Notes under the pieces: generated by a model
Database searches by the model: none
What the model was told of the DNA's origin: nothing
Seen by the model: only the letters and a program-made list of their open reading frames with translations
Source: Escherichia coli
GTDB lineage: Bacteria > Pseudomonadota > Gammaproteobacteria > Enterobacterales > Enterobacteriaceae
Length of the DNA stretch: 64,000 nucleotides
Assembly (NCBI RefSeq): GCF_003018115.1
Contig: NZ_CP027457.1
Direction: 5' to 3' (one strand)
Part shown: positions 3,432 to 20,822 of the stretch, in pieces
Layout of the letters: every line of letters starts with the position of its first letter
Position numbering within the stretch: the stretch's first letter is position 1
Program-made: the position numbers and the translations under genes

Positions 3432-3645
3432 GTACGGATTAAAAACAGCAAACTATTAGCGGGTGCACGGTTTTATCAAAAGATAAATACCGGGAAATTC
3501 CCGCTTACCTATGCTCACAATCAGTCGACTAAAAATGTTTTTGTGAGCGGTAGTAAAGTCCTAAAACTTTAACCTGCCGTTAATGTCAACCTTGCGTAAT
3601 GCACCATTACGTAAACAATTAAAATTATAAATACAGGAGTCCGGC

Positions 3646-5007
3646 GTGGAAAAAGAAAATATCACCCTCGATCCGCGTTCTTCATTTACTCCATCTTCGT
3701 CGGCAGATATTCCCGTGCCACCAGATGGATTAGTTCAACGCAGTACCCGAATTAAACGCATTCAAACCACCGCCATGTTGTTATTATTTTTTGCGGCGGT
3801 AATCAATTATCTCGACCGCAGTTCGCTGTCGGTAGCAAATTTAACGATTCGTGAAGAATTGGGATTAAGTGCCACCGAAATCGGCGCTTTGCTCTCCGTG
3901 TTTTCACTCGCTTACGGCATTGCGCAACTTCCTTGCGGCCCACTATTAGATCGTAAAGGCCCACGCCTGATGCTGGGACTGGGGATGTTCTTCTGGTCAC
4001 TGTTCCAGGCCATGTCTGGCATGGTGCACAGCTTTACGCAGTTCGTGTTGGTGCGTATCGGTATGGGGATTGGTGAAGCGCCGATGAACCCATGCGGTGT
4101 AAAAGTCATTAACGACTGGTTCAACATCAAAGAGCGCGGACGCCCGATGGGCTTCTTCAACGCAGCTTCTACCATTGGCGTTGCCGTAAGCCCACCGATT
4201 CTGGCGGCGATGATGCTGGTGATGGGCTGGCGCGGGATGTTTATTACCATTGGTGTACTGGGGATTTTTCTCGCCATCGGCTGGTATATGCTCTATCGCA
4301 ACCGCGAGCACGTAGAACTGACTGCCGTTGAACAAGCTTATCTCAATGCAGGTAGCGTCAATGCCCGCCGAGATCCGCTCAGTTTTGCCGAATGGCGCAG
4401 CCTGTTCCGTAACCGCACAATGTGGGGAATGATGCTCGGATTCAGTGGCATCAACTACACTGCGTGGCTGTACCTAGCCTGGCTTCCTGGTTACCTGCAA
4501 ACAGCCTATAACCTGGATTTAAAAAGCACAGGGTTGATGGCGGCTATCCCTTTCCTGTTTGGGGCTGCCGGGATGCTGGTCAACGGCTACGTTACTGACT
4601 GGCTGGTCAAAGGGGGAATGGCTCCGATTAAAAGCCGTAAGATCTGCATTATTGCCGGGATGTTCTGTTCTGCCGCCTTTACGCTGATAGTACCACAAGC
4701 GACAACATCCATGATGGCGGTTCTGCTGATTGGCATGGCACTGTTCTGTATTCACTTTGCCGGAACATCCTGCTGGGGCTTGATCCACGTCGCAGTTGCT
4801 TCTCGCATGACTGCGTCGGTGGGCAGTATCCAGAACTTTGCCAGCTTCATCTGCGCCTCTTTCGCGCCGATCATTACTGGTTTTATTGTTGATACAACCC
4901 ACTCATTCCGTCTGGCACTAATCATTTGCGGTTGCGTCACCGCAGCGGGAGCACTGGCGTACATCTTCCTGGTTCGTCAGCCGATCAACGACCCGCGTAA
5001 AGATTAA
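3646..5007 (+). CDS. lgoT: MFS transporter (L-galactonate:H+ symporter)
   Basis: 453-aa hydrophobic ORF, GTG start with AGGAG 6 nt upstream; matches YjjL as recalled. Confidence 0.85.
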   Translation: MEKENITLDPRSSFTPSSSADIPVPPDGLVQRSTRIKRIQTTAMLLLFFAAVINYLDRSSLSVANLTIREELGLSATEIGALLSVFSLAYGIAQLPCGPLLDRKGPRLMLGLGMFFWSLFQAMSGMVHSFTQFVLVRIGMGIGEAPMNPCGVKVINDWFNIKERGRPMGFFNAASTIGVAVSPPILAAMMLVMGWRGMFITIGVLGIFLAIGWYMLYRNREHVELTAVEQAYLNAGSVNARRDPLSFAEWRSLFRNRTMWGMMLGFSGINYTAWLYLAWLPGYLQTAYNLDLKSTGLMAAIPFLFGAAGMLVNGYVTDWLVKGGMAPIKSRKICIIAGMFCSAAFTLIVPQATTSMMAVLLIGMALFCIHFAGTSCWGLIHVAVASRMTASVGSIQNFASFICASFAPIITGFIVDTTHSFRLALIICGCVTAAGALAYIFLVRQPINDPRKD

Positions 5008-5014
5008 ACTCCCT

Positions 5015-5048
5015 ATGCCCGATAACATTTTGCTTATCGGGCATTTTT
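5015..5048. terminator. Rho-independent terminator hairpin between convergent lgoT and tsr
   Basis: ATGCCCGATAA-cattttgc-TTATCGGGCAT followed by TTTT. Confidence 0.55.
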
Positions 5049-5055
5049 ATGGCGA

Positions 5056-6720
5056 TTAAAACGTTTCCCAGTTCTCCCCGCTATCTGCCACTGCCATTTT
5101 ACGCGGCGTAGCTGGCGTCACGGTTTTTACCACAGCCGATGTTTCACGCTGCTGTTGCTGCTGTTGCTGAATCCGGAACACTGCCACAGCTTCGGTCAGG
5201 CGACTGGCCTGCTCTTCCAGCGCGGCGGCGGCGGCGGCAGATTCTTCCACCAGCGCGGCGTTCTGTTGAGTTACCCGGTCCATCTCAGCAACCGCTAAGC
5301 CAACCTGATCGATACCACGGCTCTGCTCATCAGAAGCAGAAGCTATTTCGCCCATAATGTCCGTCACGCGGGTCACAGCACTGACAATCTCCGCCATTGT
5401 TTCCCCGGCGCTTTCGACCAGCGTAGAGCCAACATCCACTTTCCCCACCGAGTCTTCAATCAGGCTTTTAATTTCACGAGCCGCCTGGGCGCTACGCTGG
5501 GCCAGATTACGCACTTCTCCCGCAACCACCGCAAAACCACGTCCTTGCTCACCCGCACGCGCTGCTTCAACCGCCGCGTTCAAAGCCAGAATATTGGTCT
5601 GGAAGGCAATGCCGTCAATTACGCTGATAATATCGGCGATTTTCTGCGAACTGGTGGAGATATCACGCATAGTCTGCACCACGTTATCTACCACTTTGCC
5701 GCCGCGTTGCGCCGTTTCAGAAGCACTTAACGCCAGGTGGCTGGCCTGGCGCGCATTCTCGGCGTTCTGTTTCACCGTTGCGGTCAGTTGCTCCATGCTG
5801 GCTGCCGTCTCTTCCAGCGAAGCGGCCTGTTGCTCGGTGCGCGAAGAGAGATCGTTATTGCCGGTGGCGATTTCGCTGGCACCGCTATAAATGGCATTGG
5901 CCCCGTTGCGCACATCACCGACGGTACGCATCAGCTCTCCCTGCATATGGCGCAAACTCTCTGCCAGTTGCCCCATCTCATTAGAGCCATCCACCTCAAT
6001 CGGTTTCACCAGATCGCCGCCTGCAATATGACGAATGCTGTCAATCAGGCGATTCATTGGCGCTACCAGCGAGGCTTTAATACCGAACCAGACGGCGAAG
6101 ATGACCGCCAGTACGACGATCATCACGCCCACCAGAATCCACATCGCCTGGCTGTAGGAGGCATTGTTATCGCTGACGGCGATATCATAGAGCCGATCGT
6201 TTTGCTCCATGTAAGCCACATACTGCTTCTCGAAACCGTCTTGATATCCCTGAGTCGGCTGATCAAAGAACTCGTTGATTTTGCCTGCACCTAACAGTTG
6301 GATCAGCTCCGCCAGCGCATTGTGATAAATATCGTAATTACGTTTGATCTCTGCCGCTGCGGCGGTGCTCTGACGCGGGTCACGCGGCAACGCTTCGTAA
6401 TCCGCCCAGTTTTTTTCCGCCTGTTTCAGCGAAATACTGGCACTCTGCATCAGCTCAGCAACGGTTGAACCGCTACCAATATTATTCTGATCCATCATGT
6501 AGCGGATACCCGCGCGGTTGAGGGTGTTACGCGTCTGCAACAACGCGACCCAGCTGCCATTCAGCGTGGATTGCTGCTGGCGAATGGTTTGTAAAACAGT
6601 GAAATTTTCTTTGTCATTCTTTAAGGCATTAAAGAACAGACCGCCTGATGTCAGTTGTAAAAGGCCAAAAACGGCCAAAACCAGCAGTAAGCTGGTCACG
6701 ATCTTGATACGTTTTAACAT
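5056..6720 (-). CDS. tsr: Methyl-accepting chemotaxis protein I (serine chemoreceptor)
   Basis: 554-aa ORF with HAMP and MCP signalling domain, methylation-region [14 protein letters not shown]-terminal NWETF pentapeptide; N-terminus [22 protein letters not shown] matches Tsr. Confidence 0.95.
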
Positions 6721-6838
6721 GGTTTCTCTTTCCTGTGGACCGATGCAAGATTTTCGGCCTGGAAAGCAAAAACTTTATGAAAAGGTGTAACCCGCCATCC
6801 ATGGAAAAACCAGGCGCTGGTTATCAGATACTAAAAAG

Positions 6839-7285
6839 TTATTCATTATCGCCCGGGATGTCTTCTTGTCGGGAATTGCCCAGAGCAATAAATTCCTCTA
6901 ACAGATGGGTTAACTGTTGCATTTTCTCGGCAGTAAACTGAGCTTCAATCTGCCGATAGGCTTCTTCAATCTGTGTCTGGGCGCGGTTATACAGCGCCTG
7001 CCCCTCTTTGGTTAGCGAGATATAGAGCTTCCGCTGATCATTGATCGGCTTTAATCGCAACACTAAACCGTCGCGTTCCATCCGCGTGAGGATCCCGGTC
7101 AGGCTTGGGCGCAAAATGCAGGCGCGATACGCCAGATCGTGAAAATCCATTGATGGGCTTTCCGCCAGAATACGCACGATGCGCCACTGTTGCTCAGTCA
7201 AATTATGCCGTTTAACGATTGGGCGAAAATAACTCATCGCCGCTTCTCGCGCCTGGAGCAACGCAATGGTTAGTGAGTCGTGCAT
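6839..7285 (-). CDS. hpaR: MarR-family repressor of the homoprotocatechuate (hpa) meta-cleavage operon
   Basis: Translation from MHDSLTIALLQAREAAM... (149 aa), MarR-type winged helix; divergent from hpaG. Start chosen at the internal Met by recall of HpaR length. Confidence 0.85.
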   Translation of the reverse strand: MHDSLTIALLQAREAAMSYFRPIVKRHNLTEQQWRIVRILAESPSMDFHDLAYRACILRPSLTGILTRMERDGLVLRLKPINDQRKLYISLTKEGQALYNRAQTQIEEAYRQIEAQFTAEKMQQLTHLLEEFIALGNSRQEDIPGDNE

Positions 7286-7507
7286 TATCTTTCCCCTGAA
7301 AAATTCAAAATCATTAATATAGAAACAGTTAATCGTCACGTTACCGGGACTGCGCTGTCCCTGCAATTCCTGATTTTATCAAAATTGATGATATTTTATT
7401 AACTTACTGATATTTAATATTTTATTATCTTTAAATGTAAATAGTTTGTTAATTAGATCACATTTATATCACTTACTTTTGCCAAACTACGCAATCGGGA
7501 ATAAAAG

Positions 7508-7531
7508 TAATCATTAACATATTAATGATTA
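7508..7531. promoter_or_regulatory. Inverted repeat TAATCATTAA-cata-TTAATGATTA in the hpaR-hpaG region; candidate HpaR operator
   Basis: Palindrome read directly, about 30 bp upstream of the hpaG start; HpaR is known to bind palindromic operators at Pg, but site identity is inferred. Confidence 0.35.
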
Positions 7532-7556
7532 AGATGATCGAATCCGAGGAGTGGTA

Positions 7557-8846
7557 ATGAAAGGCACTATCTTCGCCGTAGCATTGAACCATCGCAGCCA
7601 ACTTGATGCCTGGCAGGAAGCGTTCCAGCAATCTCCCTACAAAGCCCCGCCTAAAACTGCGGTCTGGTTTATTAAACCGCGCAATACGGTGATTGGTTGC
7701 GGTGAACCGATTCCCTTTCCACAGGGTGAAAAGGTACTGAGCGGTGCGACAGTTGCGCTGATTGTGGGAAAAACGGCGACGAAAGTACGTGAAGAAGATG
7801 CGGCAGAGTACATCGCCGGATATGCGCTGGCTAACGACGTCAGCCTGCCGGAAGAGAGCTTTTACCGCCCGGCAATCAAAGCAAAATGTCGTGATGGATT
7901 CTGCCCCATTGGCGAAACCGTGGCTCTCAGCAATGTCGATAATCTGACTATCTATACCGAGATCAACGGGCGTCCTGCCGATCACTGGAATACCGCCGAT
8001 TTACAACGTAACGCCGCACAGCTGCTGAGCGCCCTGAGCGAATTTGCCACGCTAAATCCAGGCGATGCCATTCTGCTCGGCACGCCACAGGCGCGCGTGG
8101 AAATACAGCCAGGCGATCGCGTGCGTATTCTCGCAGAAGGTTTCCCGCCGCTGGAAAATCCGGTAGTGGACGAACGTGAAGTGACCACGCGCAAGAGCTT
8201 CCCAACGCTGCCACACCCGCACGGTACGCTGTTTGCCCTCGGCCTGAACTACGCCGACCACGCCAGCGAACTGGAATTTAAGCCACCGGAAGAGCCGCTG
8301 GTGTTCCTGAAAGCGCCGAATACCCTCACTGGCCATAACCAGACCTCCGTGCGCCCGAACAATATTGAATACATGCACTACGAAGCGGAGCTGGTGGTAG
8401 TTATTGGCAAGCAGGCGCGTAACGTCAGCGAAGCCGATGCCATGGATTATGTCGCGGGCTACACCGTGTGTAACGACTACGCCATTCGCGACTATCTGGA
8501 AAACTACTACCGCCCTAACCTGCGGGTCAAAAGCCGCGACGGACTGACGCCGATGCTTTCAATCATCGTGCCGAAAGAGGCGATCCCGGACCCGCATAAT
8601 CTGACCCTTCGCACCTTCGTCAACGGCGAGTTACGCCAGCAAGGCACCACCGCCGATCTGATCTTCAGCGTGCCCTTCCTGATCGCCTACTTAAGCGAAT
8701 TTATGACCCTGAATCCGGGCGACATGATCGCCACCGGCACACCAAAAGGCTTATCTGACGTGGTGCCTGGCGATGAAGTAGTGGTAGAAGTAGAAGGCGT
8801 GGGCCGCCTGGTGAACCGAATTGTGAGTGAGGAAACAGCGAAATGA
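7557..8846 (+). CDS. hpaG: Bifunctional OPET decarboxylase / HHDD isomerase (FAH family)
   Basis: Two tandem fumarylacetoacetate-hydrolase-like halves in the translation; ATG at 7557 preferred over the ORF-track GTG at 7551. Confidence 0.9.
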   Translation: MKGTIFAVALNHRSQLDAWQEAFQQSPYKAPPKTAVWFIKPRNTVIGCGEPIPFPQGEKVLSGATVALIVGKTATKVREEDAAEYIAGYALANDVSLPEESFYRPAIKAKCRDGFCPIGETVALSNVDNLTIYTEINGRPADHWNTADLQRNAAQLLSALSEFATLNPGDAILLGTPQARVEIQPGDRVRILAEGFPPLENPVVDEREVTTRKSFPTLPHPHGTLFALGLNYADHASELEFKPPEEPLVFLKAPNTLTGHNQTSVRPNNIEYMHYEAELVVVIGKQARNVSEADAMDYVAGYTVCNDYAIRDYLENYYRPNLRVKSRDGLTPMLSIIVPKEAIPDPHNLTLRTFVNGELRQQGTTADLIFSVPFLIAYLSEFMTLNPGDMIATGTPKGLSDVVPGDEVVVEVEGVGRLVNRIVSEETAK

Positions 8847-10309
8847 AAAAAGTAAATCATTGGATCAACGGCAAAAATGTTGCAGGTAACGACTACTTCC
8901 AGACCACCAATCCGGCAACGGGTGAAGTGCTGGCGGATGTGGCCTCTGGCGGTGAAGCGGAGATCAATCAGGCGGTAGCGGCAGCGAAAGAGGCGTTCCC
9001 GAAATGGGCCAATCTGCCGATGAAAGAGCGTGCGCGCCTGATGCGCCGTCTGGGCGATCTGATCGACCAGAACGTGCCTGAGATCGCCGCGATGGAAACC
9101 GCGGACACGGGCCTGCCGATCCATCAGACCAAAAATGTGTTGATCCCACGCGCTTCTCACAACTTTGAATTTTTCGCGGAAGTCTGCCAGCAGATGAACG
9201 GCAAGACCTATCCGGTTGACGACAAGATGCTCAACTACACGCTGGTGCAACCGGTAGGCGTTTGTGCGCTGGTGTCACCGTGGAACGTGCCGTTTATGAC
9301 CGCCACCTGGAAGGTCGCGCCGTGTCTTGCGCTGGGCAATACCGCGGTGCTGAAGATGTCGGAACTCTCCCCGCTGACCGCTGACCGCCTGGGTGAGCTG
9401 GCGCTGGAAGCCGGTATTCCGGCGGGCGTGCTGAACGTGGTACAGGGCTACGGCGCAACCGCAGGGGATGCGCTGGTTCGTCATCATGACGTACGTGCCG
9501 TGTCGTTCACCGGCGGTACGGCCACCGGGCGCAACATCATGAAAAACGCCGGGCTGAAAAAATACTCCATGGAACTGGGCGGTAAATCGCCGGTGCTGAT
9601 TTTTGAAGATGCCGATATTGAACGCGCGCTGGACGCTGCCCTGTTCACCATCTTCTCAATCAACGGCGAACGCTGCACCGCCGGTTCGCGCATTTTTATT
9701 CAACAGAGCATCTATCCAGAATTCGTTAAACGCTTTGCCGAACGCGCCAACCGTCTGCGCGTGGGCGATCCGACCGATCCGAATACCCAGGTTGGGGCGC
9801 TTATCAGCCAGCAGCACTGGGAAAAAGTCTCCGGCTATATCCGTCTCGGCATTGAAGAAGGCGCAACCCTGCTGGCGGGCGGCCCGGATAAACCGTCCGA
9901 CCTGCCTGCGCACCTGAAAGGCGGCAACTTCCTGCGCCCAACCGTGCTGGCAGACGTTGATAACCGTATGCGAGTCGCCCAGGAAGAGATTTTCGGGCCG
10001 GTCGCCTGCCTGCTGCCGTTTAAAGACGAAGCCGAAGGCTTACGTCTGGCAAACGACGTGGAGTACGGCCTCGCGTCGTACATCTGGACGCAGGATGTCA
10101 GCAAAGTGTTACGCCTGGCGCGTGGCATTGAAGCTGGCATGGTGTTCGTCAACACCCAGAACGTGCGTGACCTGCGCCAGCCATTTGGCGGCGTAAAAGC
10201 CTCCGGCACCGGGCGTGAAGGCGGTGAGTACAGCTTCGAAGTGTTCGCGGAAATGAAGAACGTCTGCATTTCCATGGGCGACCATCCAATTCCGAAATGG
10301 GGAGTCTGA
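8843..10309 (+). CDS. hpaE: 5-carboxymethyl-2-hydroxymuconate semialdehyde dehydrogenase (NAD-dependent aldehyde dehydrogenase)
   Basis: 488-aa ORF with aldehyde dehydrogenase motifs (ELGGKSP, catalytic Cys in GERCTAGSR); start overlaps hpaG stop (ATGA). Confidence 0.9.
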   Translation: MKKVNHWINGKNVAGNDYFQTTNPATGEVLADVASGGEAEINQAVAAAKEAFPKWANLPMKERARLMRRLGDLIDQNVPEIAAMETADTGLPIHQTKNVLIPRASHNFEFFAEVCQQMNGKTYPVDDKMLNYTLVQPVGVCALVSPWNVPFMTATWKVAPCLALGNTAVLKMSELSPLTADRLGELALEAGIPAGVLNVVQGYGATAGDALVRHHDVRAVSFTGGTATGRNIMKNAGLKKYSMELGGKSPVLIFEDADIERALDAALFTIFSINGERCTAGSRIFIQQSIYPEFVKRFAERANRLRVGDPTDPNTQVGALISQQHWEKVSGYIRLGIEEGATLLAGGPDKPSDLPAHLKGGNFLRPTVLADVDNRMRVAQEEIFGPVACLLPFKDEAEGLRLANDVEYGLASYIWTQDVSKVLRLARGIEAGMVFVNTQNVRDLRQPFGGVKASGTGREGGEYSFEVFAEMKNVCISMGDHPIPKWGV

Positions 10310-10310
10310 T

Positions 10311-11162
10311 ATGGGTAAGTTAGCGTTAGCCGCCAAGATCACGCACGTACCGTCGATGTATCTCTCTGAACTGCCAGGGAAAAACCACGGTTGCCGCCAG
10401 GGCGCGATCGACGGGCATAAAGAGATCAGCAAGCGTTGCCGGGAAATGGGCGTCGATACCATTATCGTTTTCGATACCCACTGGCTGGTCAACAGTGCTT
10501 ATCACATCAACTGTGCAGACCATTTTGAAGGCGTCTACACCAGCAACGAGCTGCCGCATTTTATCCGCGATATGACCTACAACTACGAGGGCAACCCGGA
10601 GTTGGGGCAGCTTATTGCCGATGAAGCCTTAAAGCTCGGCGTGCGGGCAAAAGCGCACAACATTCCCAGCCTGAAACTGGAATACGGCACGCTGGTGCCA
10701 ATGCGCTACATGAATGAAGACAAGCACTTCAAAGTGGTTTCCATTTCAGCTTTCTGCACTGTTCACGATTTTGCCGACAGCCGCAAGCTGGGCGAGGCTA
10801 TTCTGAAAGCGATCGAACAGTACGACGGCACCGTGGCGGTCCTTGCCAGCGGTTCGTTATCGCACCGCTTTATTGACGATCAGCGAGCGGAAGAAGGGAT
10901 GAACAGCTACACCCGCGAGTTCGACCGCCAGATGGACGAGCGCGTGGTGAAGCTGTGGCGCGAAGGCCAGTTCAACGAGTTCTGCAATATGCTGCCGGAG
11001 TATGCCGACTACTGCTACGGCGAAGGCAATATGCACGACACGGTGATGCTGCTGGGGATGCTCGGCTGGGATAAATACGACGGCAAGGTGGAGTTTATCA
11101 CCGAGCTATTCCCAAGCTCTGGCACCGGTCAGGTTAACGCTGTTTTCCCGCTTCCCGCGTAA
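10311..11162 (+). CDS. hpaD: 3,4-dihydroxyphenylacetate (homoprotocatechuate) 2,3-dioxygenase, extradiol type
   Basis: 283-aa ORF starting 1 nt after the hpaE stop; LigB-type extradiol dioxygenase family by recall. Confidence 0.88.
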   Translation: MGKLALAAKITHVPSMYLSELPGKNHGCRQGAIDGHKEISKRCREMGVDTIIVFDTHWLVNSAYHINCADHFEGVYTSNELPHFIRDMTYNYEGNPELGQLIADEALKLGVRAKAHNIPSLKLEYGTLVPMRYMNEDKHFKVVSISAFCTVHDFADSRKLGEAILKAIEQYDGTVAVLASGSLSHRFIDDQRAEEGMNSYTREFDRQMDERVVKLWREGQFNEFCNMLPEYADYCYGEGNMHDTVMLLGMLGWDKYDGKVEFITELFPSSGTGQVNAVFPLPA

Positions 11163-11171
11163 GGACGTTTT

Positions 11172-11552
11172 ATGCCGCACTTTATCGTGGAATGTACTGA
11201 AAATATTCGTGAAGAAGCCCGCTTACCTGAGCTGTTTGCCAGTGTTAACACTGCACTGGCGGCAACGGGGATTTTTCCGCTTGGGGGAATACGTAGCCGG
11301 GCGCACTGGATCGATACCTGGCAAATGGCTGATGGCAAGCACGATTACGCCTTTGTGCATATGACGCTAAAAATCGGCAGCGGACGCAGTCTGGAAAGCC
11401 GTCAGGAAGTAGGCGAAATGCTGTTTGATCTGATTAAAACGCACTTCGCCTCACTGATGGAGAGCCGTTACCTGGCGCTTTCATTTGAGATTGCAGAGCT
11501 GCACCCGACGTTGAATTTCAAACAGAACAACGTACACGCGTTGTTTAAATAA
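11172..11552 (+). CDS. hpaF: 5-carboxymethyl-2-hydroxymuconate isomerase
   Basis: 126-aa ORF; position and size match HpaF. Confidence 0.85.
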
Positions 11553-11619
11553 ATTTGCACCAGCTTCCAGGCCGGATGATAAGGCGCAGCCGCATCCGGC
11601 AATGCCACAGGATATCGCT

Positions 11620-12423
11620 ATGTTCGATAAACACACCCACACCCTGATCGCCCAGCGTCTGGATCAGGCAGAAAAACAGCGCGAACAGATCCGCGCGATC
11701 TCGCTGGATTACCCGGAGATCACCATCGAAGACGCTTACGCGGTGCAGCGCGAATGGGTTCGCCTGAAAATAGCCGAAGGCCGTACGCTGAAAGGCCACA
11801 AAATCGGACTGACCTCGAAAGCGATGCAGGCCAGCTCACAGATCAGCGAACCAGATTACGGTGCATTGCTGGACGACATGTTCTTCCACGATGGCAGCGA
11901 TATCCCGACCGATCGCTTTATCGTACCGCGCATTGAAGTGGAGCTGGCTTTTGTGCTGGCAAAACCGCTGCGTGGGCCAAACTGCACGCTGTTCGACGTT
12001 TACAACGCCACGGACTATGTGATCCCGGCGCTGGAGCTGATCGACGCTCGCTGCCACAACATCGATCCGGAAACTCAGCGCCCGCGCAAAGTGTTCGACA
12101 CCATTTCTGATAACGCCGCCAACGCCGGAGTGATCCTCGGAGGTCGTCCGATCAAACCAGACGAACTGGATCTGCGTTGGATCTCCGCCCTCATGTATCG
12201 CAATGGCGTGATTGAAGAAACCGGCGTCGCCGCTGGCGTGCTGAATCACCCGGCAAACGGCGTGGCCTGGCTGGCGAACAAACTCGCACCGTATGACGTA
12301 CAACTGGAAGCCGGGCAAATCATTCTCGGTGGTTCGTTTACCCGCCCGGTTCCGGCGCGTAAGGGCGACACCTTCCACGTCGATTACGGCAACATGGGCT
12401 CCATTAGCTGCCGCTTTGTTTAA
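11620..12423 (+). CDS. hpaH: 2-oxo-hept-3-ene-1,7-dioate hydratase
   Basis: Translation from [14 protein letters not shown] (267 aa); start chosen at the second Met of the ORF-track entry. Confidence 0.85.
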
Positions 12424-12433
12424 GGAGAGAACG

Positions 12434-13222
12434 ATGGAAAACAGTTTTAAAGCGGCGCTGAAAGCAGGCCGTCCGCAGATTGGATTATGGCTGGGGCTGA
12501 GCAGCAGCTACAGCGCGGAGTTACTGGCCGGAGCAGGATTCGACTGGTTGTTGATCGACGGTGAGCACGCACCGAACAACGTACAAACCGTGCTCACCCA
12601 ACTACAGGCGATTGCGCCCTACCCCAGCCAGCCGGTGGTACGTCCGTCGTGGAACGATCCGGTGCAAATCAAACAACTGCTGGATGTCGGCACACAAACC
12701 TTACTGGTGCCGATGGTTCAAAACGCTGACGAAGCCCGTGAAGCGGTACGCGCCACCCGTTATCCCCCCGCCGGTATTCGCGGTGTGGGCAGTGCGCTGG
12801 CTCGCGCCTCGCGCTGGAATCGCATTCCTGATTACCTGCAAAAAGCCAACGATCAAATGTGCGTGCTGGTGCAGATCGAAACGCGTGAGGCAATGAAGAA
12901 CTTACCGCAGATTCTGGACGTGGAAGGGGTCGACGGCGTGTTTATCGGCCCGGCGGATCTGAGCGCCGATATGGGTTATGCCGGTAATCCGCAGCACCCG
13001 GAAGTACAGGTCGCCATTGAGCAGGCGATCGTGCAGATCCGCGAAGCGGGTAAGGCGCCGGGGATCCTGATCGCCAATGAGCAACTGGCAAAACGCTATC
13101 TGGAACTGGGCGCGCTGTTTGTCGCCGTCGGCGTTGACACCACCCTGCTCGCCCGCGCCGCCGAAGCGCTGGCAGCACGGTTTGGCGCGCAGGCTACAGC
13201 GATTAAGCCCGGCGTGTATTAA
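12434..13222 (+). CDS. hpaI: 4-hydroxy-2-oxo-heptane-1,7-dioate aldolase (HpcH/HpaI class II aldolase)
   Basis: Translation from [19 protein letters not shown] (262 aa) with AGGAGA 7 nt upstream; the ORF-track entry 12293..13222 starts upstream inside hpaH. Confidence 0.85.
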
Positions 13223-13223
13223 T

Positions 13224-13351
13224 GCCGGATGCGCTGCGCTTATCCGGCCTACACTCGCACCAAATCGTAGGCCTGATAAGGCGTTACGCCGCATCAGGCA
13301 AAAAGCCGTACCAAATCGCGGACCGGATAAGGCGTTTACGCCGCATCCGCC
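13224..13351. repeat. Cluster of three REP (BIME-type) elements between hpaI and hpaX
   Basis: GCCGGATGCGCTGCGCTTATCCGGCCTAC, GTAGGCCTGATAAGGCGTTACGCCGCATCAGGC and CGGACCGGATAAGGCGTTTACGCCGCATCCGCC read directly. Confidence 0.75.
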
Positions 13352-13396
13352 ATAAACCTTGTCGTACCCTACAAAAATCCCATTAGAGGAAGAAAA

Positions 13397-14773
13397 ATGA
13401 GCGACACCTCACCTGCCATACCGGAGAGTATCGATCCGGCGAATCAGCATAAAGCGCTGACTGCCGGACAACAGGCGGTTATTAAGAAGTTGTTTCGCCG
13501 CCTGATCGTCTTTCTGTTCGTGCTGTTTATCTTCTCGTTCCTTGATCGCATCAACATCGGCTTTGCCGGACTCACGATGGGACGCGACCTCGGTCTGAGC
13601 GCCACCATGTTTGGCCTCGCCACCACCCTGTTCTACGCCGCTTATGTCATCTTCGGCATTCCCAGCAACATTATGCTGAGTATTGTCGGTGCGCGACGCT
13701 GGATCGCCACCATCATGGTACTTTGGGGCATCGCCTCTACTGCCACCATGTTTGCCACTGGCCCCACCAGCTTGTACGTACTGCGTATACTGGTTGGCAT
13801 TACCGAAGCCGGCTTTCTGCCCGGTATTCTGCTCTATTTAACCTTCTGGTTTCCGGCCTACTTCCGCGCCCGTGCCAACGCCTTGTTTATGGTGGCAATG
13901 CCGGTAACGACAGCGTTGGGATCGATCGTTTCCGGCTACATTTTGTCGCTGGATGGCGTAATGGCATTAAAAGGCTGGCAGTGGCTGTTTTTGCTGGAAG
14001 GCTTCCCGTCGGTATTACTCGGCGTCATGGTGTGGTTCTGGCTTGATGACTCACCGGACAAAGCTAAGTGGCTGACGAAAGAAGACAAAAAATGCCTGCA
14101 AGAGATGATGGATAACGATCGTCTGACGCTGGTTCAGCCAGAGGGAGCCATCAGCCACCATGCCATGCAACAACGCAGCATGTGGCGGGAGATCTTCACT
14201 CCGGTGGTGATGATGTATACCCTGGCGTATTTCTGCCTGACCAACACACTTAGTGCGATCAGCATCTGGACACCGCAGATCCTGCAAAGCTTTAATCAGG
14301 GCAGCAGTAATATCACCATCGGCCTGCTGGCCGCCGTACCGCAGATTTGTACCATTCTCGGGATGATCTACTGGAGCCGTCACTCAGATCGCCGCCAGGA
14401 ACGAAGGCATCACACCGCCCTTCCTTATTTGTTCGCTGCCGCTGGTTGGTTACTGGCTTCGGCAACTGATCACAACATGATCCAGATGCTGGGGATCATT
14501 ATGGCTTCGACCGGATCATTCAGCGCAATGGCGATTTTCTGGACAACACCGGATCAGTCCATCAGCCTGCGGGCACGAGCGATCGGTATTGCGGTGATCA
14601 ACGCCACTGGCAACATTGGTTCAGCATTAAGTCCGTTTATGATCGGCTGGTTGAAAGATCTGACCGGCAGCTTTAACAGTGGATTGTGGTTTGTTGCCGC
14701 GCTGCTGGTGATTGGTGCAGGGATTATCTGGGCAATTCCAATGCAGTCCTCCCGTCCGCGAGCGACCCCGTAA
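13397..14773 (+). CDS. hpaX: 4-hydroxyphenylacetate permease (MFS)
   Basis: 458-aa polytopic membrane ORF within the hpa cluster. Confidence 0.85.
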   Translation: MSDTSPAIPESIDPANQHKALTAGQQAVIKKLFRRLIVFLFVLFIFSFLDRINIGFAGLTMGRDLGLSATMFGLATTLFYAAYVIFGIPSNIMLSIVGARRWIATIMVLWGIASTATMFATGPTSLYVLRILVGITEAGFLPGILLYLTFWFPAYFRARANALFMVAMPVTTALGSIVSGYILSLDGVMALKGWQWLFLLEGFPSVLLGVMVWFWLDDSPDKAKWLTKEDKKCLQEMMDNDRLTLVQPEGAISHHAMQQRSMWREIFTPVVMMYTLAYFCLTNTLSAISIWTPQILQSFNQGSSNITIGLLAAVPQICTILGMIYWSRHSDRRQERRHHTALPYLFAAAGWLLASATDHNMIQMLGIIMASTGSFSAMAIFWTTPDQSISLRARAIGIAVINATGNIGSALSPFMIGWLKDLTGSFNSGLWFVAALLVIGAGIIWAIPMQSSRPRATP

Positions 14774-14782
14774 GGAACGACG

Positions 14783-15673
14783 ATGTGTGACCGTCAGATT
14801 GCCAATATTGATATCAGCAAAGAGTACGATGAAAGCCTGGGCACGGACGATGTGCATTATCAGTCGTTCGCCCGCATGGCGGCATTTTTTGGCCGCCATA
14901 TGCTGCCACATCGCCACGAACAGTACTTTCAGATGCATTTCCTCAATAGCGGACAGATTGAGCTACAGCTTGACGATCATCGCTACTCGGTGGAAGCGCC
15001 CCTGTTTGTCCTGACGCCGCCGTCAGTACCTCATGCGTTTATTACGGAGTCTGACGCCGACGGTCATGTGTTGACGGTACGGGAAGATCTGATCTGGCCC
15101 CTGCTGGAAGTTCTTTATCCAGGCACTCGGGAAACCTTCGGCCTGCCGGGGATTTGCCTGTCACTGGCAGATAAACCCGACGAACTGGCGGCGCTGGAAC
15201 ACTATTGGCAACTGATAGAGCGGGAATCGGTGGAACAACTGCCTGGACGGGAACACACCCTGACGTTACTGGCACAGGCAGTGTTCACCCTACTGCTGCG
15301 TAACGCAAAACTCGACGATCATGCCGCCAGCGGAATGCGCGGAGAATTAAAACTGTTCCAGCGTTTTCATATGCTGATTGAAAGCCATTTTCATCAGCAC
15401 TGGACAGTACCAGATTACGCTAACGAACTGCATATCACCGAATCACGCCTCACGGACATCTGCCGCCGCTTTGCCAACCGTCCGCCAAAACGGTTGATTT
15501 TCGACAGGCAGCTGCGAGAAGCCAAACGGCTGCTGCTGTTTTCTGATAACGCCGTGAACAATATTGCCTGGCAACTCGGTTTTAAGGATCCGGCTTATTT
15601 TGCGCGCTTTTTTAATCGCTTAGTCGGTTGCTCGCCCAGTGCTTATCGCGCCAAAAAAGTACCTGTGACGTGA
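14783..15673 (+). CDS. hpaA: AraC/XylS-family activator of hpaBC
   Basis: 296-aa ORF with C-terminal AraC-type HTH (…DPAYFARFFNRLVGCSPSAYR…); immediately upstream of hpaBC. Confidence 0.85.
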   Translation: MCDRQIANIDISKEYDESLGTDDVHYQSFARMAAFFGRHMLPHRHEQYFQMHFLNSGQIELQLDDHRYSVEAPLFVLTPPSVPHAFITESDADGHVLTVREDLIWPLLEVLYPGTRETFGLPGICLSLADKPDELAALEHYWQLIERESVEQLPGREHTLTLLAQAVFTLLLRNAKLDDHAASGMRGELKLFQRFHMLIESHFHQHWTVPDYANELHITESRLTDICRRFANRPPKRLIFDRQLREAKRLLLFSDNAVNNIAWQLGFKDPAYFARFFNRLVGCSPSAYRAKKVPVT

Positions 15674-15923
15674 AAATCCCTTAGCCTTAACGGGAAACCA
15701 GGCATCACCTGCTATTCCCCTTTCTCCGCCTGGAGCAAGGGGATTTAGTAACGTTAAAAATCGCTAAAAGCGACCTCGATCACAAAACCGTACCCGACCT
15801 GAAAAGTACCAGCCATTGTCCCAAAAGTCTCTTCCCGTAATCGCCCCTGCAAGCTTCAATTGAATAACAAAAACAACACACAAAATTAACAATCGTATTC
15901 CGATTAATACTGTAGAGGTCGAC

Positions 15924-17486
15924 ATGAAACCAGAAGATTTCCGCGCCAGTACCCAACGTCCGTTCACCGGGGAAGAGTATCTGAAAAGCCTGCAGGATGG
16001 TCGCGAGATCTATATCTACGGCGAGAGAGTGAAAGACGTCACCACTCATCCGGCATTTCGTAATGCGGCAGCGTCTGTTGCCCAACTGTACGACGCGCTA
16101 CACAAACCGGAGATGCAGGACTCTCTGTGTTGGAACACCGACACCGGCAGCGGCGGCTATACCCATAAATTCTTCCGCGTGGCGAAAAGTGCCGACGACC
16201 TGCGCCAGCAACGCGATGCCATCGCTGAGTGGTCACGCCTGAGCTATGGCTGGATGGGCCGTACCCCAGACTACAAAGCTGCTTTCGGTTGCGCACTGGG
16301 CGCGAATCCGGGCTTTTACGGTCAGTTCGAGCAGAACGCCCGTAACTGGTATACCCGTATTCAGGAAACTGGCCTCTACTTTAACCACGCGATTGTTAAC
16401 CCACCGATCGATCGTCATTTGCCGACCGATAAAGTGAAAGACGTTTACATCAAGCTGGAAAAAGAGACTGACGCCGGGATTATCGTCAGCGGTGCGAAAG
16501 TGGTTGCCACCAACTCGGCGCTGACTCACTACAACATGATTGGTTTCGGCTCGGCACAAGTGATGGGCGAAAACCCGGACTTCGCACTGATGTTCGTTGC
16601 GCCAATGGATGCCGATGGCGTGAAATTAATCTCCCGCGCCTCTTATGAGATGGTCGCGGGTGCTACCGGCTCGCCGTACGACTACCCGCTCTCCAGCCGC
16701 TTCGATGAGAACGATGCGATCCTGGTGATGGATAACGTACTGATCCCTTGGGAAAACGTGCTGATCTACCGCGATTTCGATCGCTGCCGTCGCTGGACGA
16801 TGGAAGGCGGTTTTGCCCGTATGTATCCGCTGCAAGCCTGTGTGCGCCTGGCAGTGAAACTCGACTTCATCACGGCACTGCTGAAAAAATCACTCGAATG
16901 TACCGGCACCCTGGAGTTCCGTGGTGTGCAGGCCGATCTCGGTGAAGTGGTGGCGTGGCGCAACACCTTCTGGGCATTGAGTGACTCGATGTGTTCAGAA
17001 GCGACGCCGTGGGTCAACGGGGCTTATTTACCGGATCATGCTGCACTGCAAACCTATCGCGTACTGGCACCAATGGCCTACGCGAAGATCAAAAACATTA
17101 TCGAACGCAACGTTACCAGTGGCCTGATCTATCTCCCTTCCAGTGCCCGTGACCTGAACAATCCGCAGATCGACCAGTATCTGGCGAAGTATGTGCGCGG
17201 TTCGAACGGTATGGATCACGTCCAGCGCATCAAGATCCTCAAACTGATGTGGGATGCCATTGGCAGCGAATTTGGTGGTCGTCACGAGCTGTATGAAATC
17301 AACTACTCCGGTAGCCAGGATGAGATTCGCCTGCAATGTCTGCGCCAGGCACAAAGCTCCGGCAATATGGACAAGATGATGGCGATGGTTGATCGCTGCC
17401 TGTCGGAATACGACCAGAACGGCTGGACTGTGCCGCACCTGCACAACAACGACGATATCAACATGCTGGATAAGCTGCTGAAATAA
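15924..17486 (+). CDS. hpaB: 4-hydroxyphenylacetate 3-monooxygenase, oxygenase component (FADH2-dependent)
   Basis: 520-aa ORF MKPEDFRASTQRPFTGEEYLKSLQDGREIYIYGERV...; matches HpaB as recalled. Confidence 0.9.
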   Translation: MKPEDFRASTQRPFTGEEYLKSLQDGREIYIYGERVKDVTTHPAFRNAAASVAQLYDALHKPEMQDSLCWNTDTGSGGYTHKFFRVAKSADDLRQQRDAIAEWSRLSYGWMGRTPDYKAAFGCALGANPGFYGQFEQNARNWYTRIQETGLYFNHAIVNPPIDRHLPTDKVKDVYIKLEKETDAGIIVSGAKVVATNSALTHYNMIGFGSAQVMGENPDFALMFVAPMDADGVKLISRASYEMVAGATGSPYDYPLSSRFDENDAILVMDNVLIPWENVLIYRDFDRCRRWTMEGGFARMYPLQACVRLAVKLDFITALLKKSLECTGTLEFRGVQADLGEVVAWRNTFWALSDSMCSEATPWVNGAYLPDHAALQTYRVLAPMAYAKIKNIIERNVTSGLIYLPSSARDLNNPQIDQYLAKYVRGSNGMDHVQRIKILKLMWDAIGSEFGGRHELYEINYSGSQDEIRLQCLRQAQSSGNMDKMMAMVDRCLSEYDQNGWTVPHLHNNDDINMLDKLLK

Positions 17487-17503
17487 CGCAGCAGGAGGTT
17501 AAG

Positions 17504-18016
17504 ATGCAATTAGATGAACAACGCCTGCGCTTTCGTGACGCGATGGCCAGCCTGTCGGCAGCGGTAAATATTATCACCACCGAGGGCGACGCCGGACAAT
17601 GCGGGATTACGGCAACGGCCGTCTGCTCGGTCACGGATACCCCTCCGTCGCTGATGGTGTGCATTAACGCCAACAGTGCGATGAACCCGGTTTTTCAGGG
17701 CAACGGCAAGTTGTGCGTCAACGTCCTCAACCATGAGCAGGAACTGATGGCGCGCCACTTCGCGGGCATGACGGGCATGGCGATGGAAGAGCGTTTTAGC
17801 CTCTCGTGCTGGCAAAAAGGTCCGCTGGCGCAGCCGGTGCTAAAAGGTTCGCTGGCCAGTCTTGAAGGTGAGATCCGCGATGTGCAGGCGATTGGCACAC
17901 ATCTGGTGTATCTGGTGGAGATTAAAAACATCATCCTCAGTGCAGAAGGTCACGGACTTATTTACTTTAAACGCCGTTTCCATCCGGTGATGCTGGAAAT
18001 GGAAGCTGCGATTTAA
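17504..18016 (+). CDS. hpaC: 4-hydroxyphenylacetate 3-monooxygenase, NADH:flavin reductase component
   Basis: 170-aa ORF 17 nt after hpaB; flavin reductase-like domain. Confidence 0.9.
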   Translation: MQLDEQRLRFRDAMASLSAAVNIITTEGDAGQCGITATAVCSVTDTPPSLMVCINANSAMNPVFQGNGKLCVNVLNHEQELMARHFAGMTGMAMEERFSLSCWQKGPLAQPVLKGSLASLEGEIRDVQAIGTHLVYLVEIKNIILSAEGHGLIYFKRRFHPVMLEMEAAI

Positions 18017-18022
18017 GCTCCA

Positions 18023-18056
18023 GCCCCTTCACGCATTCGTCGAAGGGGCATTTTTA
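18023..18056 (+). terminator. Rho-independent terminator after hpaC
   Basis: GCCCCTTC-acgcattcgtc-GAAGGGGC followed by ATTTTT. Confidence 0.6.
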
Positions 18057-18101
18057 TTGTGATCTCAATCACATATCCACCCGACGAATAATTCTTGCCC
18101 A

Positions 18102-18129
18102 ACCGCTCACCGCCATTCCTGACCGCTTA
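18102..18129. promoter_or_regulatory. Direct repeats ACCGCTCA ... ACCGCTTA (12-nt spacer) upstream of btsT; candidate BtsR (YehT) LytTR-type binding site
   Basis: Repeats read directly about 280 bp upstream of the btsT start; assignment rests on the recalled BtsR motif ACC[GA]CT[CT]A. Confidence 0.45.
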
Positions 18130-18408
18130 CATCCCTAAAATAACCACTCAGTTATTTACCTTACTTTACGCGCGCGTATCTCTGGCAACATCACTGCAGG
18201 ATAGCGGTCAATTTACCTCCTCAAACGCAACGCAAACCTAGAACGGCTTCGGCCTATGATTAACAAATTACTCTATGGATTTTGGTTTGCAGGAAGGCAG
18301 CAAGTGAGTGAATCCCCGGGAGCTTACAACAGTAAGTGACAGGGGTGAACGAACGCAGCTGCCGCACCTGTAAGCCAAAAGACGACGAGTAAAATGCCAG
18401 GTTTTACT

Positions 18409-20559
18409 ATGGATACGAAAAAACTATTCAAGCACATACCCTGGGTGATTCTCGGAATCATCGGTGCATTCTGCCTCGCGGTAGTTGCATTACGTCGGGG
18501 GGAGCACGTCAGCGCCCTGTGGATCGTGGTCGCCTCTGTGTCGGTGTATCTGGTGGCGTATCGCTACTACAGTCTGTACATCGCCCAGAAGGTGATGAAA
18601 CTCGACCCCACGCGCGCGACGCCTGCGGTTATTAACAACGACGGTCTGAACTACGTTCCGACCAACCGTTACGTGTTGTTTGGTCACCACTTCGCCGCTA
18701 TCGCCGGTGCTGGTCCGCTGGTTGGTCCGGTTCTCGCCGCGCAGATGGGCTACCTGCCTGGCACGCTGTGGCTGCTGGCGGGGGTAGTGCTGGCCGGTGC
18801 GGTACAGGACTTTATGGTGCTGTTTATCTCCTCTCGCCGTAACGGCGCATCTCTCGGTGAGATGATCAAAGAAGAGATGGGACCAGTACCGGGGACTATC
18901 GCGCTGTTTGGCTGTTTCTTAATCATGATCATCATCCTCGCCGTTCTGGCGCTGATTGTGGTTAAAGCCCTGGCCGAAAGTCCGTGGGGTGTCTTCACCG
19001 TTTGCTCAACCGTACCAATTGCGCTGTTTATGGGTATCTATATGCGCTTTATTCGTCCGGGGCGTGTGGGTGAAGTCTCTGTCATTGGTATCGTGCTGCT
19101 GGTTGCCTCTATCTACTTCGGTGGCGTGATTGCTCACGATCCGTACTGGGGTCCGGCACTGACCTTTAAAGACACCACCATTACCTTCGCGCTGATTGGC
19201 TATGCGTTTGTTTCCGCACTGCTGCCGGTGTGGCTGATCCTCGCACCACGCGACTATCTGGCAACCTTCCTGAAAATCGGCGTTATCGTCGGCCTGGCGC
19301 TGGGTATCGTGGTGCTGAACCCGGAACTGAAAATGCCTGCGATGACCCAGTACATTGACGGTACTGGCCCGCTGTGGAAAGGCGCTCTGTTCCCGTTCCT
19401 GTTCATCACCATCGCCTGTGGTGCGGTATCTGGCTTCCACGCACTGATCTCTTCCGGTACGACGCCGAAACTGCTGGCTAATGAAACCGACGCGCGTTTC
19501 ATCGGTTATGGCGCAATGCTGATGGAGTCCTTCGTGGCGATTATGGCGCTGGTTGCTGCGTCCATCATCGAACCAGGTCTTTACTTCGCGATGAATACCC
19601 CGCCTGCTGGCCTTGGCATCACCATGCCTAACCTGCATGAAATGGGTGGCGAGAACGCGCCGATCATCATGGCGCAGTTGAAAGACGTTACCGCACACGC
19701 GGCGGCGACCGTCAGCTCCTGGGGCTTCGTGATTTCGCCAGAGCAGATCCTGCAAACCGCGAAAGACATTGGTGAGCCTTCTGTCCTGAACCGTGCAGGT
19801 GGTGCGCCGACGCTGGCGGTAGGTATCGCTCACGTGTTCCACAAAGTGCTGCCGATGGCTGACATGGGCTTCTGGTATCACTTCGGTATTCTGTTCGAAG
19901 CACTGTTCATCCTGACCGCGCTGGATGCGGGTACCCGTTCTGGCCGCTTTATGTTGCAAGACCTGCTGGGTAACTTCATCCCGTTCCTGAAAAAAACCGA
20001 CTCTCTGGTTGCCGGTATCATCGGTACTGCGGGCTGTGTGGGTCTGTGGGGCTACCTGCTGTATCAGGGCGTGGTCGATCCGCTGGGCGGCGTTAAGAGC
20101 CTGTGGCCGTTGTTCGGTATCTCCAACCAGATGCTGGCAGCCGTGGCGCTGGTACTGGGTACCGTTGTGCTGATTAAGATGAAGCGCACCCAATACATCT
20201 GGGTAACTGTTGTTCCGGCTGTATGGCTGCTTATCTGCACCACCTGGGCACTGGGTCTGAAACTGTTCAGCACCAACCCGCAGATGGAAGGCTTCTTCTA
20301 CATGGCAAGCCAGTACAAAGAGAAGATTGCTAACGGTACTGACCTGACGGCGCAGCAGATTGCCAACATGAACCACATCGTTGTGAACAACTACACCAAC
20401 GCAGGTCTGAGTATTCTGTTCCTGATTGTGGTGTACAGCATCATCTTCTACGGTTTCAAAACCTGGCTGAAGGTGCGTAACAGCGACAAACGTACTGACA
20501 AAGAAACACCGTACGTTCCAATCCCGGAAGGCGGCGTGAAGATCTCTTCGCACCACTAA
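18409..20559 (+). CDS. btsT: Pyruvate/H+ symporter, CstA family
   Basis: Translation from MDTKKLFKHIPWVILGIIG... (716 aa), many TM segments; start placed at the second Met of the ORF-track entry. Confidence 0.9.
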   Translation: MDTKKLFKHIPWVILGIIGAFCLAVVALRRGEHVSALWIVVASVSVYLVAYRYYSLYIAQKVMKLDPTRATPAVINNDGLNYVPTNRYVLFGHHFAAIAGAGPLVGPVLAAQMGYLPGTLWLLAGVVLAGAVQDFMVLFISSRRNGASLGEMIKEEMGPVPGTIALFGCFLIMIIILAVLALIVVKALAESPWGVFTVCSTVPIALFMGIYMRFIRPGRVGEVSVIGIVLLVASIYFGGVIAHDPYWGPALTFKDTTITFALIGYAFVSALLPVWLILAPRDYLATFLKIGVIVGLALGIVVLNPELKMPAMTQYIDGTGPLWKGALFPFLFITIACGAVSGFHALISSGTTPKLLANETDARFIGYGAMLMESFVAIMALVAASIIEPGLYFAMNTPPAGLGITMPNLHEMGGENAPIIMAQLKDVTAHAAATVSSWGFVISPEQILQTAKDIGEPSVLNRAGGAPTLAVGIAHVFHKVLPMADMGFWYHFGILFEALFILTALDAGTRSGRFMLQDLLGNFIPFLKKTDSLVAGIIGTAGCVGLWGYLLYQGVVDPLGGVKSLWPLFGISNQMLAAVALVLGTVVLIKMKRTQYIWVTVVPAVWLLICTTWALGLKLFSTNPQMEGFFYMASQYKEKIANGTDLTAQQIANMNHIVVNNYTNAGLSILFLIVVYSIIFYGFKTWLKVRNSDKRTDKETPYVPIPEGGVKISSHH

Positions 20560-20567
20560 CCGTGTTT

Positions 20568-20596
20568 AGCCCCGCTTCGGCGGGGCTTTGTTCTTA
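20568..20596 (+). terminator. GC-rich hairpin followed by TTGTTCTT between btsT and yjiX; terminator or attenuator
   Basis: AGCCCCGC-ttcg-GCGGGGCT then a T-rich stretch; yjiX follows only about 20 bp later. Confidence 0.4.
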
Positions 20597-20608
20597 TCAG
20601 AGTGAACT

Positions 20609-20812
20609 ATGTTTGGTAACTTAGGACAGGCAAAAAAATATCTCGGCCAGGCGGCGAAGATGTTGATTGGCATTCCAGACTACGACAACTACGTCGAGCA
20701 TATGAAGACCAACCATCCCGACAAGCCGTACATGAGCTATGAAGAATTCTTCCGCGAACGCCAGAACGCGCGCTACGGCGGCGATGGTAAAGGCGGTATG
20801 CGCTGTTGTTAA
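20609..20812 (+). CDS. yjiX: Small DUF466-family protein downstream of btsT
   Basis: 67-aa ORF; size, position and recalled YjiX identity. Confidence 0.75.
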
Positions 20813-20822
20813 TGGAGAGAGC

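Follow-up and report, generated by a model that had tools for sequence, protein, structure and literature searches.

The sequence analysed here, called the window, is a stretch of 64,000 nucleotides of Escherichia coli DNA (contig NZ_CP027457.1 of the RefSeq assembly GCF_003018115.1), and the system in question is its hpa (hpc) gene cluster for the catabolism of 4-hydroxyphenylacetate (4-HPA) and 3-hydroxyphenylacetate (3-HPA), here collectively HPA. The cluster itself is already known: it has been characterised since the 1980s-90s and is an ordinary feature of E. coli. A map of open reading frames (ORFs) was made for positions 4500-21000, and gene names were transferred from the annotation of the 100% identical RefSeq genome NZ_CP024269. 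The map consists of one leftward ORF that ends at 6839, followed by ten rightward ORFs that extend to 18016, with flanking ORFs of 554 and 721 amino acids. In both the map and the transferred annotation, the stop codons of hpaR (6839) and hpaC (18016) form the edges of a set of eleven genes, which is in agreement with the initial annotation, where eleven hpa genes were placed at 6839-18016 between tsr and btsT.

In the comparison with NCBIfam, each of the eleven products scored above the curated cutoff of its own equivalog model, with a match that covers the whole profile; in the following, the model is given with the bit score and the cutoff. The leftmost gene, hpaR (6839-7285, minus strand), encodes a MarR-type repressor of the meta operon (TIGR02337, 200 vs 121). 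The other ten genes are on the plus strand and begin with hpaG (7557-8846), which encodes a bifunctional OPET decarboxylase/HHDD isomerase (NF011750, 976 vs 811), hpaE (8843-10309) for CHMS dehydrogenase (TIGR02299, 740 vs 638), and hpaD (10311-11162) for homoprotocatechuate 2,3-dioxygenase, the ring-cleavage enzyme (TIGR02298, 549 vs 316). These are followed by hpaF (11172-11552) for CHM isomerase, present as a divergent allele (NF011605, 265 vs 215, and an alignment to PDB entry 1OTG), hpaH (11620-12423) for OHED hydratase (TIGR02312, 465 vs 351), and hpaI (12434-13222) for HHED (4-hydroxy-2-oxoheptanedioate) aldolase (TIGR02311, 431 vs 369). The remaining genes are hpaX (13397-14773) for a 4-HPA permease of the MFS family (TIGR02332, 894 vs 615), hpaA (14783-15673) for an AraC/XylS-type activator of hpaBC (TIGR02297, 387 vs 275), hpaB (15924-17486) for the oxygenase component of the FADH2-dependent 4-HPA 3-monooxygenase (TIGR02310, 1110 vs 885), and hpaC (17504-18016) for its NADH:flavin reductase component (NF012030, 386 vs 315). 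In addition, full-length matches to known E. coli structures were found for HpaB (PDB 6QYH/6EB0), HpaG (1GTT/1I7O, HpcE), HpaI (2V5J/4B5X, HpcH), and HpaF (1OTG, CHM isomerase).

The initial annotation had also described the cluster as intact, and this claim was borne out when the exact alignment to the E. coli W cluster was run. In a gene-by-gene comparison, none of the eleven ORFs differs in length from its W counterpart, and all of them start with ATG and contain no internal stop and no frameshift. The HpaR, HpaH, HpaB, and HpaC proteins are identical to those of W; HpaE, HpaD, HpaX, and HpaA each differ by one residue, HpaG and HpaI by three, and HpaF by 19. A global alignment to W confines the insertions and deletions to the spacers: one of 43 bp in the hpaF-hpaH spacer, and two of 1 bp in the spacer between hpaI and hpaX, which contains repetitive extragenic palindromic (REP) sequences.

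Three well-known systems of the same species provide the closest points of reference. The hpa cluster of E. coli W (GenBank Z37980; hpaRGEDFHIXABC; work of Prieto, Diaz, Garcia, and Galan) has the same genes, gene order, strands, ORF lengths, and flanks, and shares with the window the control regions, the spacer with three REPs, and an enterobacterial repetitive intergenic consensus (ERIC) element before btsT, at a nucleotide identity of about 98%. It differs in hpaF and the next spacer, which are about 20% diverged, and in the hpaF-hpaH spacer, where the window is shorter by 43 bp, that is, by one REP; beyond yjiA, W has the pac gene for penicillin G acylase. The hpc system of E. coli C (HpcR, HpcE, HpcB, HpcD, HpcG, and HpcH), from which most of the enzyme structures come, comprises the same enzymes, as reflected in the matches to 1GTT, 2V5J, and 1OTG; its crystallised CHM isomerase (CHMI; 1OTG), however, is of the W type and differs from HpaF of the window at about 19 positions. 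Among E. coli B strains (BL21(DE3) and REL606), BL21(DE3) has the cluster at the same chromosomal position with the same gene order and strands, and shares with the window the hpaF type, the presence of one REP in the hpaF-hpaH spacer, and an arginine at HpaB residue 379, but it has two rather than three REPs between hpaI and hpaX, and its HpaG differs by seven residues.

Pathway and regulation were assigned to the window because of its near-identity to the established E. coli W and C systems; the organisation of the eleven genes in two operons and their regulation by HpaA and HpaR have been described (PMC7180172, PMC3032704), and the pathway steps and the role of HpaA are summarised in PMC7180172. 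By this assignment, HpaX would import 4-HPA or 3-HPA, and HpaA, a regulator of the AraC type, would sense the substrate and switch on hpaBC. HpaC would then reduce flavin with NADH, and HpaB would use the reduced flavin and O2 to form 3,4-dihydroxyphenylacetate (homoprotocatechuate), which in turn would relieve the repression of hpaGEDFHI by the MarR-type HpaR. The extradiol (meta) cleavage of the ring is expected to be carried out by HpaD; the resulting semialdehyde would be oxidised by HpaE, and the product would be isomerised by HpaF, decarboxylated and isomerised by HpaG, and hydrated by HpaH. Finally, HpaI would cleave the last intermediate into pyruvate and succinic semialdehyde.

Few or no differences from W are seen in the control regions. 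The divergent hpaR/hpaG control region (7286-7556) contains two palindromic sites, both identical to W: the palindrome AATCATTAA-CAT-ATTAATGATT (in full AATCATTAACATATTAATGATT) at 7509-7530 and, at 7309-7334, a half-palindromic site related to it. We presume that these are putative HpaR operators; the operators described in the literature are of the type TTAA-N4-TTAA in a two-site layout (PMC7180172). The spacer between hpaA and hpaB (15674-15923) is the candidate region for the HpaA-dependent hpaBC promoter, and its part from 15745 to 15923 is 100% identical to W. On the 3' side of hpaC, a hairpin followed by a T-run at 18023-18058 on the plus strand resembles an intrinsic terminator (folding energy -18 kcal/mol, z = -3.3). 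A scan for promoter and terminator consensus sequences gave no enrichment over shuffled sequences, and it missed this hpaC terminator, which was later seen by folding. A scan of 6500-18700 at the Rfam gathering thresholds found no RNA family.

In the comparison with K-12 MG1655, tsr and btsT are neighbours that lie 377 bp apart. When the tsr-btsT spacer of K-12 was searched against the window with BLASTN, homology to K-12 stopped at position 6781 of the window and resumed at 18103, so that the segment 6782-18102 has no BLAST counterpart in MG1655, where 133 bp of AT-rich filler take the place of about 11.3 kb. Note that the hpa-specific part of this segment is somewhat shorter, about 6782-18057, and that 18058-18102 corresponds, in diverged form, to the K-12 region upstream of btsT. 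The hpa-specific DNA is placed as ending just past the hpaC terminator, because both sequences share a palindrome resembling a CRP site near 18058-18073. In particular, a perfect TGTGA-N6-TCACA palindrome is found at 18058-18073, and the 133-bp filler of K-12 has its own perfect copy. The idea that the filler holds a remnant of a deletion was rejected after a comparison with the entire island, in which nothing but a weak match around the TGTGA-N6-TCACA palindrome appeared.

The cluster was therefore correctly stated by the initial annotation to be absent from K-12, and its presence in other E. coli strains also holds, since we saw it in W and BL21(DE3), and B, C, and W are named in the literature, according to which these three use 4-HPA and K-12, which is without the eleven-gene cluster, does not (PMC7180172, PMC3032704). 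To describe its distribution, positions 6700-18400 were compared by MegaBLAST with 5426 complete E. coli genomes, and at least 80% of the query was covered in 2019 of them. About 37-38% of complete E. coli genomes thus carry hpa, and as a marker of a non-K-12 strain the cluster is true but weak. The segment 6700-18400 is 100% identical in F8111-1SC3, LR882990, and O169:H41 2014EL-1345-2, vs an identity of only about 98.6% in the majority of hpa-positive genomes, and the window probably belongs to the lineage of these three strains. Use of HPA is already known as a trait that follows lineages in E. coli: among avian isolates, phylogroups A, B1, and C carry hpaB and phylogroups B2 and G lack it, a pattern that matches growth on 3-HPA, and phylogroup C strains with hpaB are able to grow on this isomer (PMC12444784).

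The term "island", which had also been applied to the cluster, raises the question of which of the two states is the older. A horizontally acquired island could have been inserted between tsr and btsT in some lineages, in which case the state of K-12 would be the ancestral empty site. The base composition agrees with this, with a GC content of 54.4% in 6782-18102 vs 49.9% in the rest of the window, as does the patchy distribution, with about 38% of genomes positive and the K-12-type junction in 2755 of the 5426 genomes (51%), among them 536 (97% identity) and other B2 strains; moreover, part of the cluster appears clearly to come from another genus (see below). However, annotation and junction comparison revealed no integrase, transposase, insertion sequence, tRNA gene, or flanking direct repeat at the ends of the cluster, and the same junctions occur in related genera. 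The adjacency of tsr and hpaR, of hpaC and btsT, or of both is found across Enterobacter, Klebsiella, and Citrobacter, and tsr is near the cluster in Pseudocitrobacter. For example, the gap between tsr and hpaR is 115-194 bp in four Enterobacter loci, and that between hpaC and btsT is 284-317 bp in Citrobacter sp. R56, Enterobacter cloacae, and two Klebsiella species. In these sister-genus loci, the identities of the hpa genes (77-88%) are similar to those of the flanks (79-88%). The site in K-12, in addition, is not simply empty and holds the unrelated 133-bp filler. In Salmonella, Kluyvera, Serratia, and others, the cluster is at other locations.

Because the junctions are without signs of mobility and the arrangement is syntenic in the sister genera, we read the tsr-hpa-btsT order as predating E. 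coli and the state of K-12 as a deletion. The cluster is most likely not a mobile island, judging from these comparisons of sequence, and insertion into an ancestrally empty site is an unlikely, though not negligible, explanation. Of the "island" label, the atypical GC content and the patchy distribution remain, and the sense of a mobile element is contradicted by the missing mobility signatures and by the occupation of the same locus in related genera.

The one gene that departs from the general similarity to W is hpaF. Compared with the W/C allele, 75 of its 381 nucleotides and 19 of its 126 amino acids differ, vs 1-4% in the neighbouring genes, and the region of about 20% divergence from W includes the following spacer (11172-11600). 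The synonymous divergence dS is 1.15 in hpaF vs 0.02-0.19 in the other hpa genes, and the dN/dS ratio of hpaF is 0.08; the proline after the initiator methionine is kept in the HpaF of the window. Across the complete E. coli genomes, hpaF is present in 2071 of 5426 and falls into two types with none intermediate: 1084 genomes have the type of the window (at least 95% identity) and 987 have the W type (80-90% identity). The split is a dimorphism that spans the species, at a ratio of about 52:48 among hpa-positive E. coli. The hpaF of BL21(DE3) is of the window type and differs from that of the window by three nucleotides and one amino acid. A literature search for a description of this dimorphism returned only unrelated Helicobacter terms resembling hpaF.

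A possible source of the two alleles was sought by scanning one genome per species with a degenerate pattern, which yielded at least 120 hpaF loci. Among the matches listed, the W-type hpaF is 93-98% identical to the genes of three Pseudocitrobacter species, and the window type is close only to that of a divergent 'E. coli', SCPM-O-B-8794 (95.5%), the rest being at 82% or less. Import of the window-type allele was considered and set aside, there being no close foreign donor among the matches listed; we read it as a native Escherichia sequence, and it is probably the native form of the gene.

Similarity to Pseudocitrobacter extends beyond hpaF of the W type. The loci of Pseudocitrobacter vendiensis and P. 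faecalis have the same gene order over the part that they cover, hpaR to hpaA, with tsr nearby, and from mid-hpaG to hpaI they are 90-98% identical to E. coli, hpaF excepted. They differ in hpaR, hpaX, and tsr, which are only about 80% identical, in an hpaF that is of the W type and not of the window type, and in having about 3.4 kb without an E. coli counterpart between tsr and hpaR (8390-11829 and 3190-6487 in two Pseudocitrobacter loci). To locate the changes, identity profiles of the window with P. vendiensis and with Enterobacter were calculated both per gene and in sliding windows. Against P. vendiensis, two stretches of high identity stand out, 8001-11200 at 94-98% and the part beyond hpaF up to 13200 at 90-95%. 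Between them, hpaF is at about 80%, and the same level is seen on the left in hpaR, the control region, and roughly 450 bp at the start of hpaG (up to 8000), and on the right in hpaX and the sequence that follows. The comparison with Enterobacter showed no stepwise change of identity along the cluster.

Between P. vendiensis and P. faecalis, the identity is a uniform 86-95% along the whole cluster, and because of this uniformity we take the cluster to be native to Pseudocitrobacter and the E. coli segment to be nested in its diversity. The simplest reading of the profiles is that about 5 kb was imported into E. coli by homologous recombination from a Pseudocitrobacter-like donor, with the hpaF of the window as an un-replaced native gene and the W/C allele as that of the donor. 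We have moderate confidence in an inter-genus mosaic within the ancestral locus, where about 5.2 kb from mid-hpaG to the REP cluster between hpaI and hpaX, in essence the meta operon, would have been overwritten from a donor like P. vendiensis, and where hpa-positive E. coli would now be divided about 52:48 between the native-type hpaF (the window and BL21(DE3)) and the donor-type hpaF (W and C).

Since the crystallised CHMI of E. coli C is of the other type, it should not be taken as representing every E. coli HpaF, and it may be asked whether a cluster that is intact in sequence is nevertheless functionally impaired here, through the divergent HpaF or a scattered substitution, so that the strain would not grow on HPA. 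The 19 substitutions relative to the characterised enzyme lend some weight to such an impairment, and there is a precedent for a single residue altering the phenotype: in REL606, the change of HpaB residue 379 from arginine to cysteine abolishes growth on 3-HPA and not on 4-HPA (PMC7201708). The evidence from the window points the other way. Every product is above its equivalog cutoff, HpaB is identical to that of W with Arg379 present, and the window-type hpaF is found in 1084 genomes at a dN/dS of 0.08. By analogy with BL21(DE3), we regard the window-type hpaF as functional in vivo, because that strain carries it and grows on both 3-HPA and 4-HPA (PMC7201708). An impairment of the pathway is therefore very improbable. 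Instead, because HpaB has Arg379, the strain should be able to use both 3-HPA and 4-HPA.

Taken together, we read the region as an intact chromosomal hpa (hpc) cluster that encodes the full route for HPA and occupies an ancestral tsr-hpa-btsT locus, which was lost in K-12-type strains and is itself a recombination mosaic, and we assign this reading a probability of about 93%. Several points weigh against it. First, of the 126 residues of HpaF, 19 are not those of the enzyme used for crystallisation and assays, and the activity of HpaF is deduced from conservation, purifying selection, and the phenotype of BL21(DE3). Second, the synteny in the sister genera could also come from a transfer of the cluster together with its flanks. 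Third, the putative operators and promoters lean on identity to W and on literature taken second-hand. Fourth, a closer donor or another Escherichia species may have been missed by the species scan, which covers at least 120 loci.

In practical terms, the cluster predicts 3- and 4-hydroxyphenylacetate as carbon sources, which are gut metabolites formed from tyrosine and from flavonoids such as quercetin. HpaBC is also in wide use as a biocatalyst. The only new detail is the apparent origin of the middle part from a Pseudocitrobacter-like bacterium; the mosaic structure and the hpaF dimorphism are modest by-products and leave the picture of the pathway unchanged. What the present analysis adds, namely the ancestral locus, the Pseudocitrobacter-like operon, the two hpaF alleles, and the polymorphic REP and ERIC elements, is of interest mainly for work on recombination and gene loss in E. 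coli.

In addition to the genes, the locus contains several repeats. The REP core CTTATCMGGCCTAC has 10 matches in the window vs 0.42 expected in a search that allows mismatches. The spacer between hpaI and hpaX (13223-13396; fold z = -4.1) contains a REP cluster at 13224-13351 that consists of three REPs, at 13224-13252 (plus), 13267-13299 (minus), and 13320-13351 (minus). Perfect cores in inverted orientation are located at 13239-13252 (plus) and 13267-13280 (minus), so that the first two REPs form an inverted pair that agrees with the definition of a bacterial interspersed mosaic element (BIME). The third REP is oriented like the second and stems from a duplication of 51-52 bp that is lacking in BL21(DE3). 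The description of this spacer as a BIME cluster may be broadly apt, with one BIME pair and an additional REP beside it. The number of REPs is polymorphic here, with three in the window and W and two in BL21(DE3).

Several features had been overlooked by the initial annotation, which noted the BIME cluster of this spacer: the divergent hpaF described above, a REP in the hpaF-hpaH spacer, and an element upstream of btsT that resembles ERIC sequences. The second of these is a single REP-like hairpin at 11571-11600 that is visible in the centroid fold. The REP number is polymorphic in this spacer as well, with one in the window and in BL21(DE3) and two in W, where the additional 43 bp form the second REP.

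The third is an imperfect palindrome of 127 bp at 18267-18393, similar to ERIC sequences (or intergenic repeat units, IRU), which lies between the btsT promoter region and the start codon, outside the hpa cluster. It folds at -61.7 kcal/mol (z = -9.7) and is a dispersed, unannotated repeat of intergenic regions, for which the median copy number in E. coli genomes is 9. Its core matches what we take to be the ERIC/IRU consensus, GTGAATCCCC.GGAGCTTACA / AAGTAAGTGAC.GGGGTGA. At this position, the element is present in W and absent in K-12 and Citrobacter sp. R56; it is also seemingly absent in some genomes without the K-12-type junction, such as an O157:H7 strain.

On its right side, the hpa-specific DNA borders directly on the btsT promoter region. 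There, a direct repeat ACCGCTCA-N12-ACCGCTTA at 18102-18129 resembles the presumed site for BtsR (YehT) in the btsT promoter. The right core flank itself is btsT (yjiY; 18409-20559, plus strand), which encodes a pyruvate/H+ symporter; it is annotated as such in the identical genome and is 98% identical to the gene of K-12. Its sole NCBIfam match is to the model of the paralogous CstA (NF011590), which it reaches below the cutoff (1012 vs 1188 bits). In the annotation of the identical genome, btsT is followed by yjiX and yjiA. In the RefSeq annotations of F8111-1SC3, W, and BL21(DE3), the locus tags skip one number from hpaC to btsT, which suggests that a feature was formerly called in this spacer and has since been withdrawn.

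The left core flank is tsr (5056-6720, minus strand), which encodes the serine chemoreceptor, a product of 554 amino acids that matches NF011615 over its full length with 1225 bits. The product has this length in the window and in W vs 551 amino acids (1656 bp) in K-12 MG1655 and BL21(DE3), and the difference is presumably a 9-bp in-frame change.

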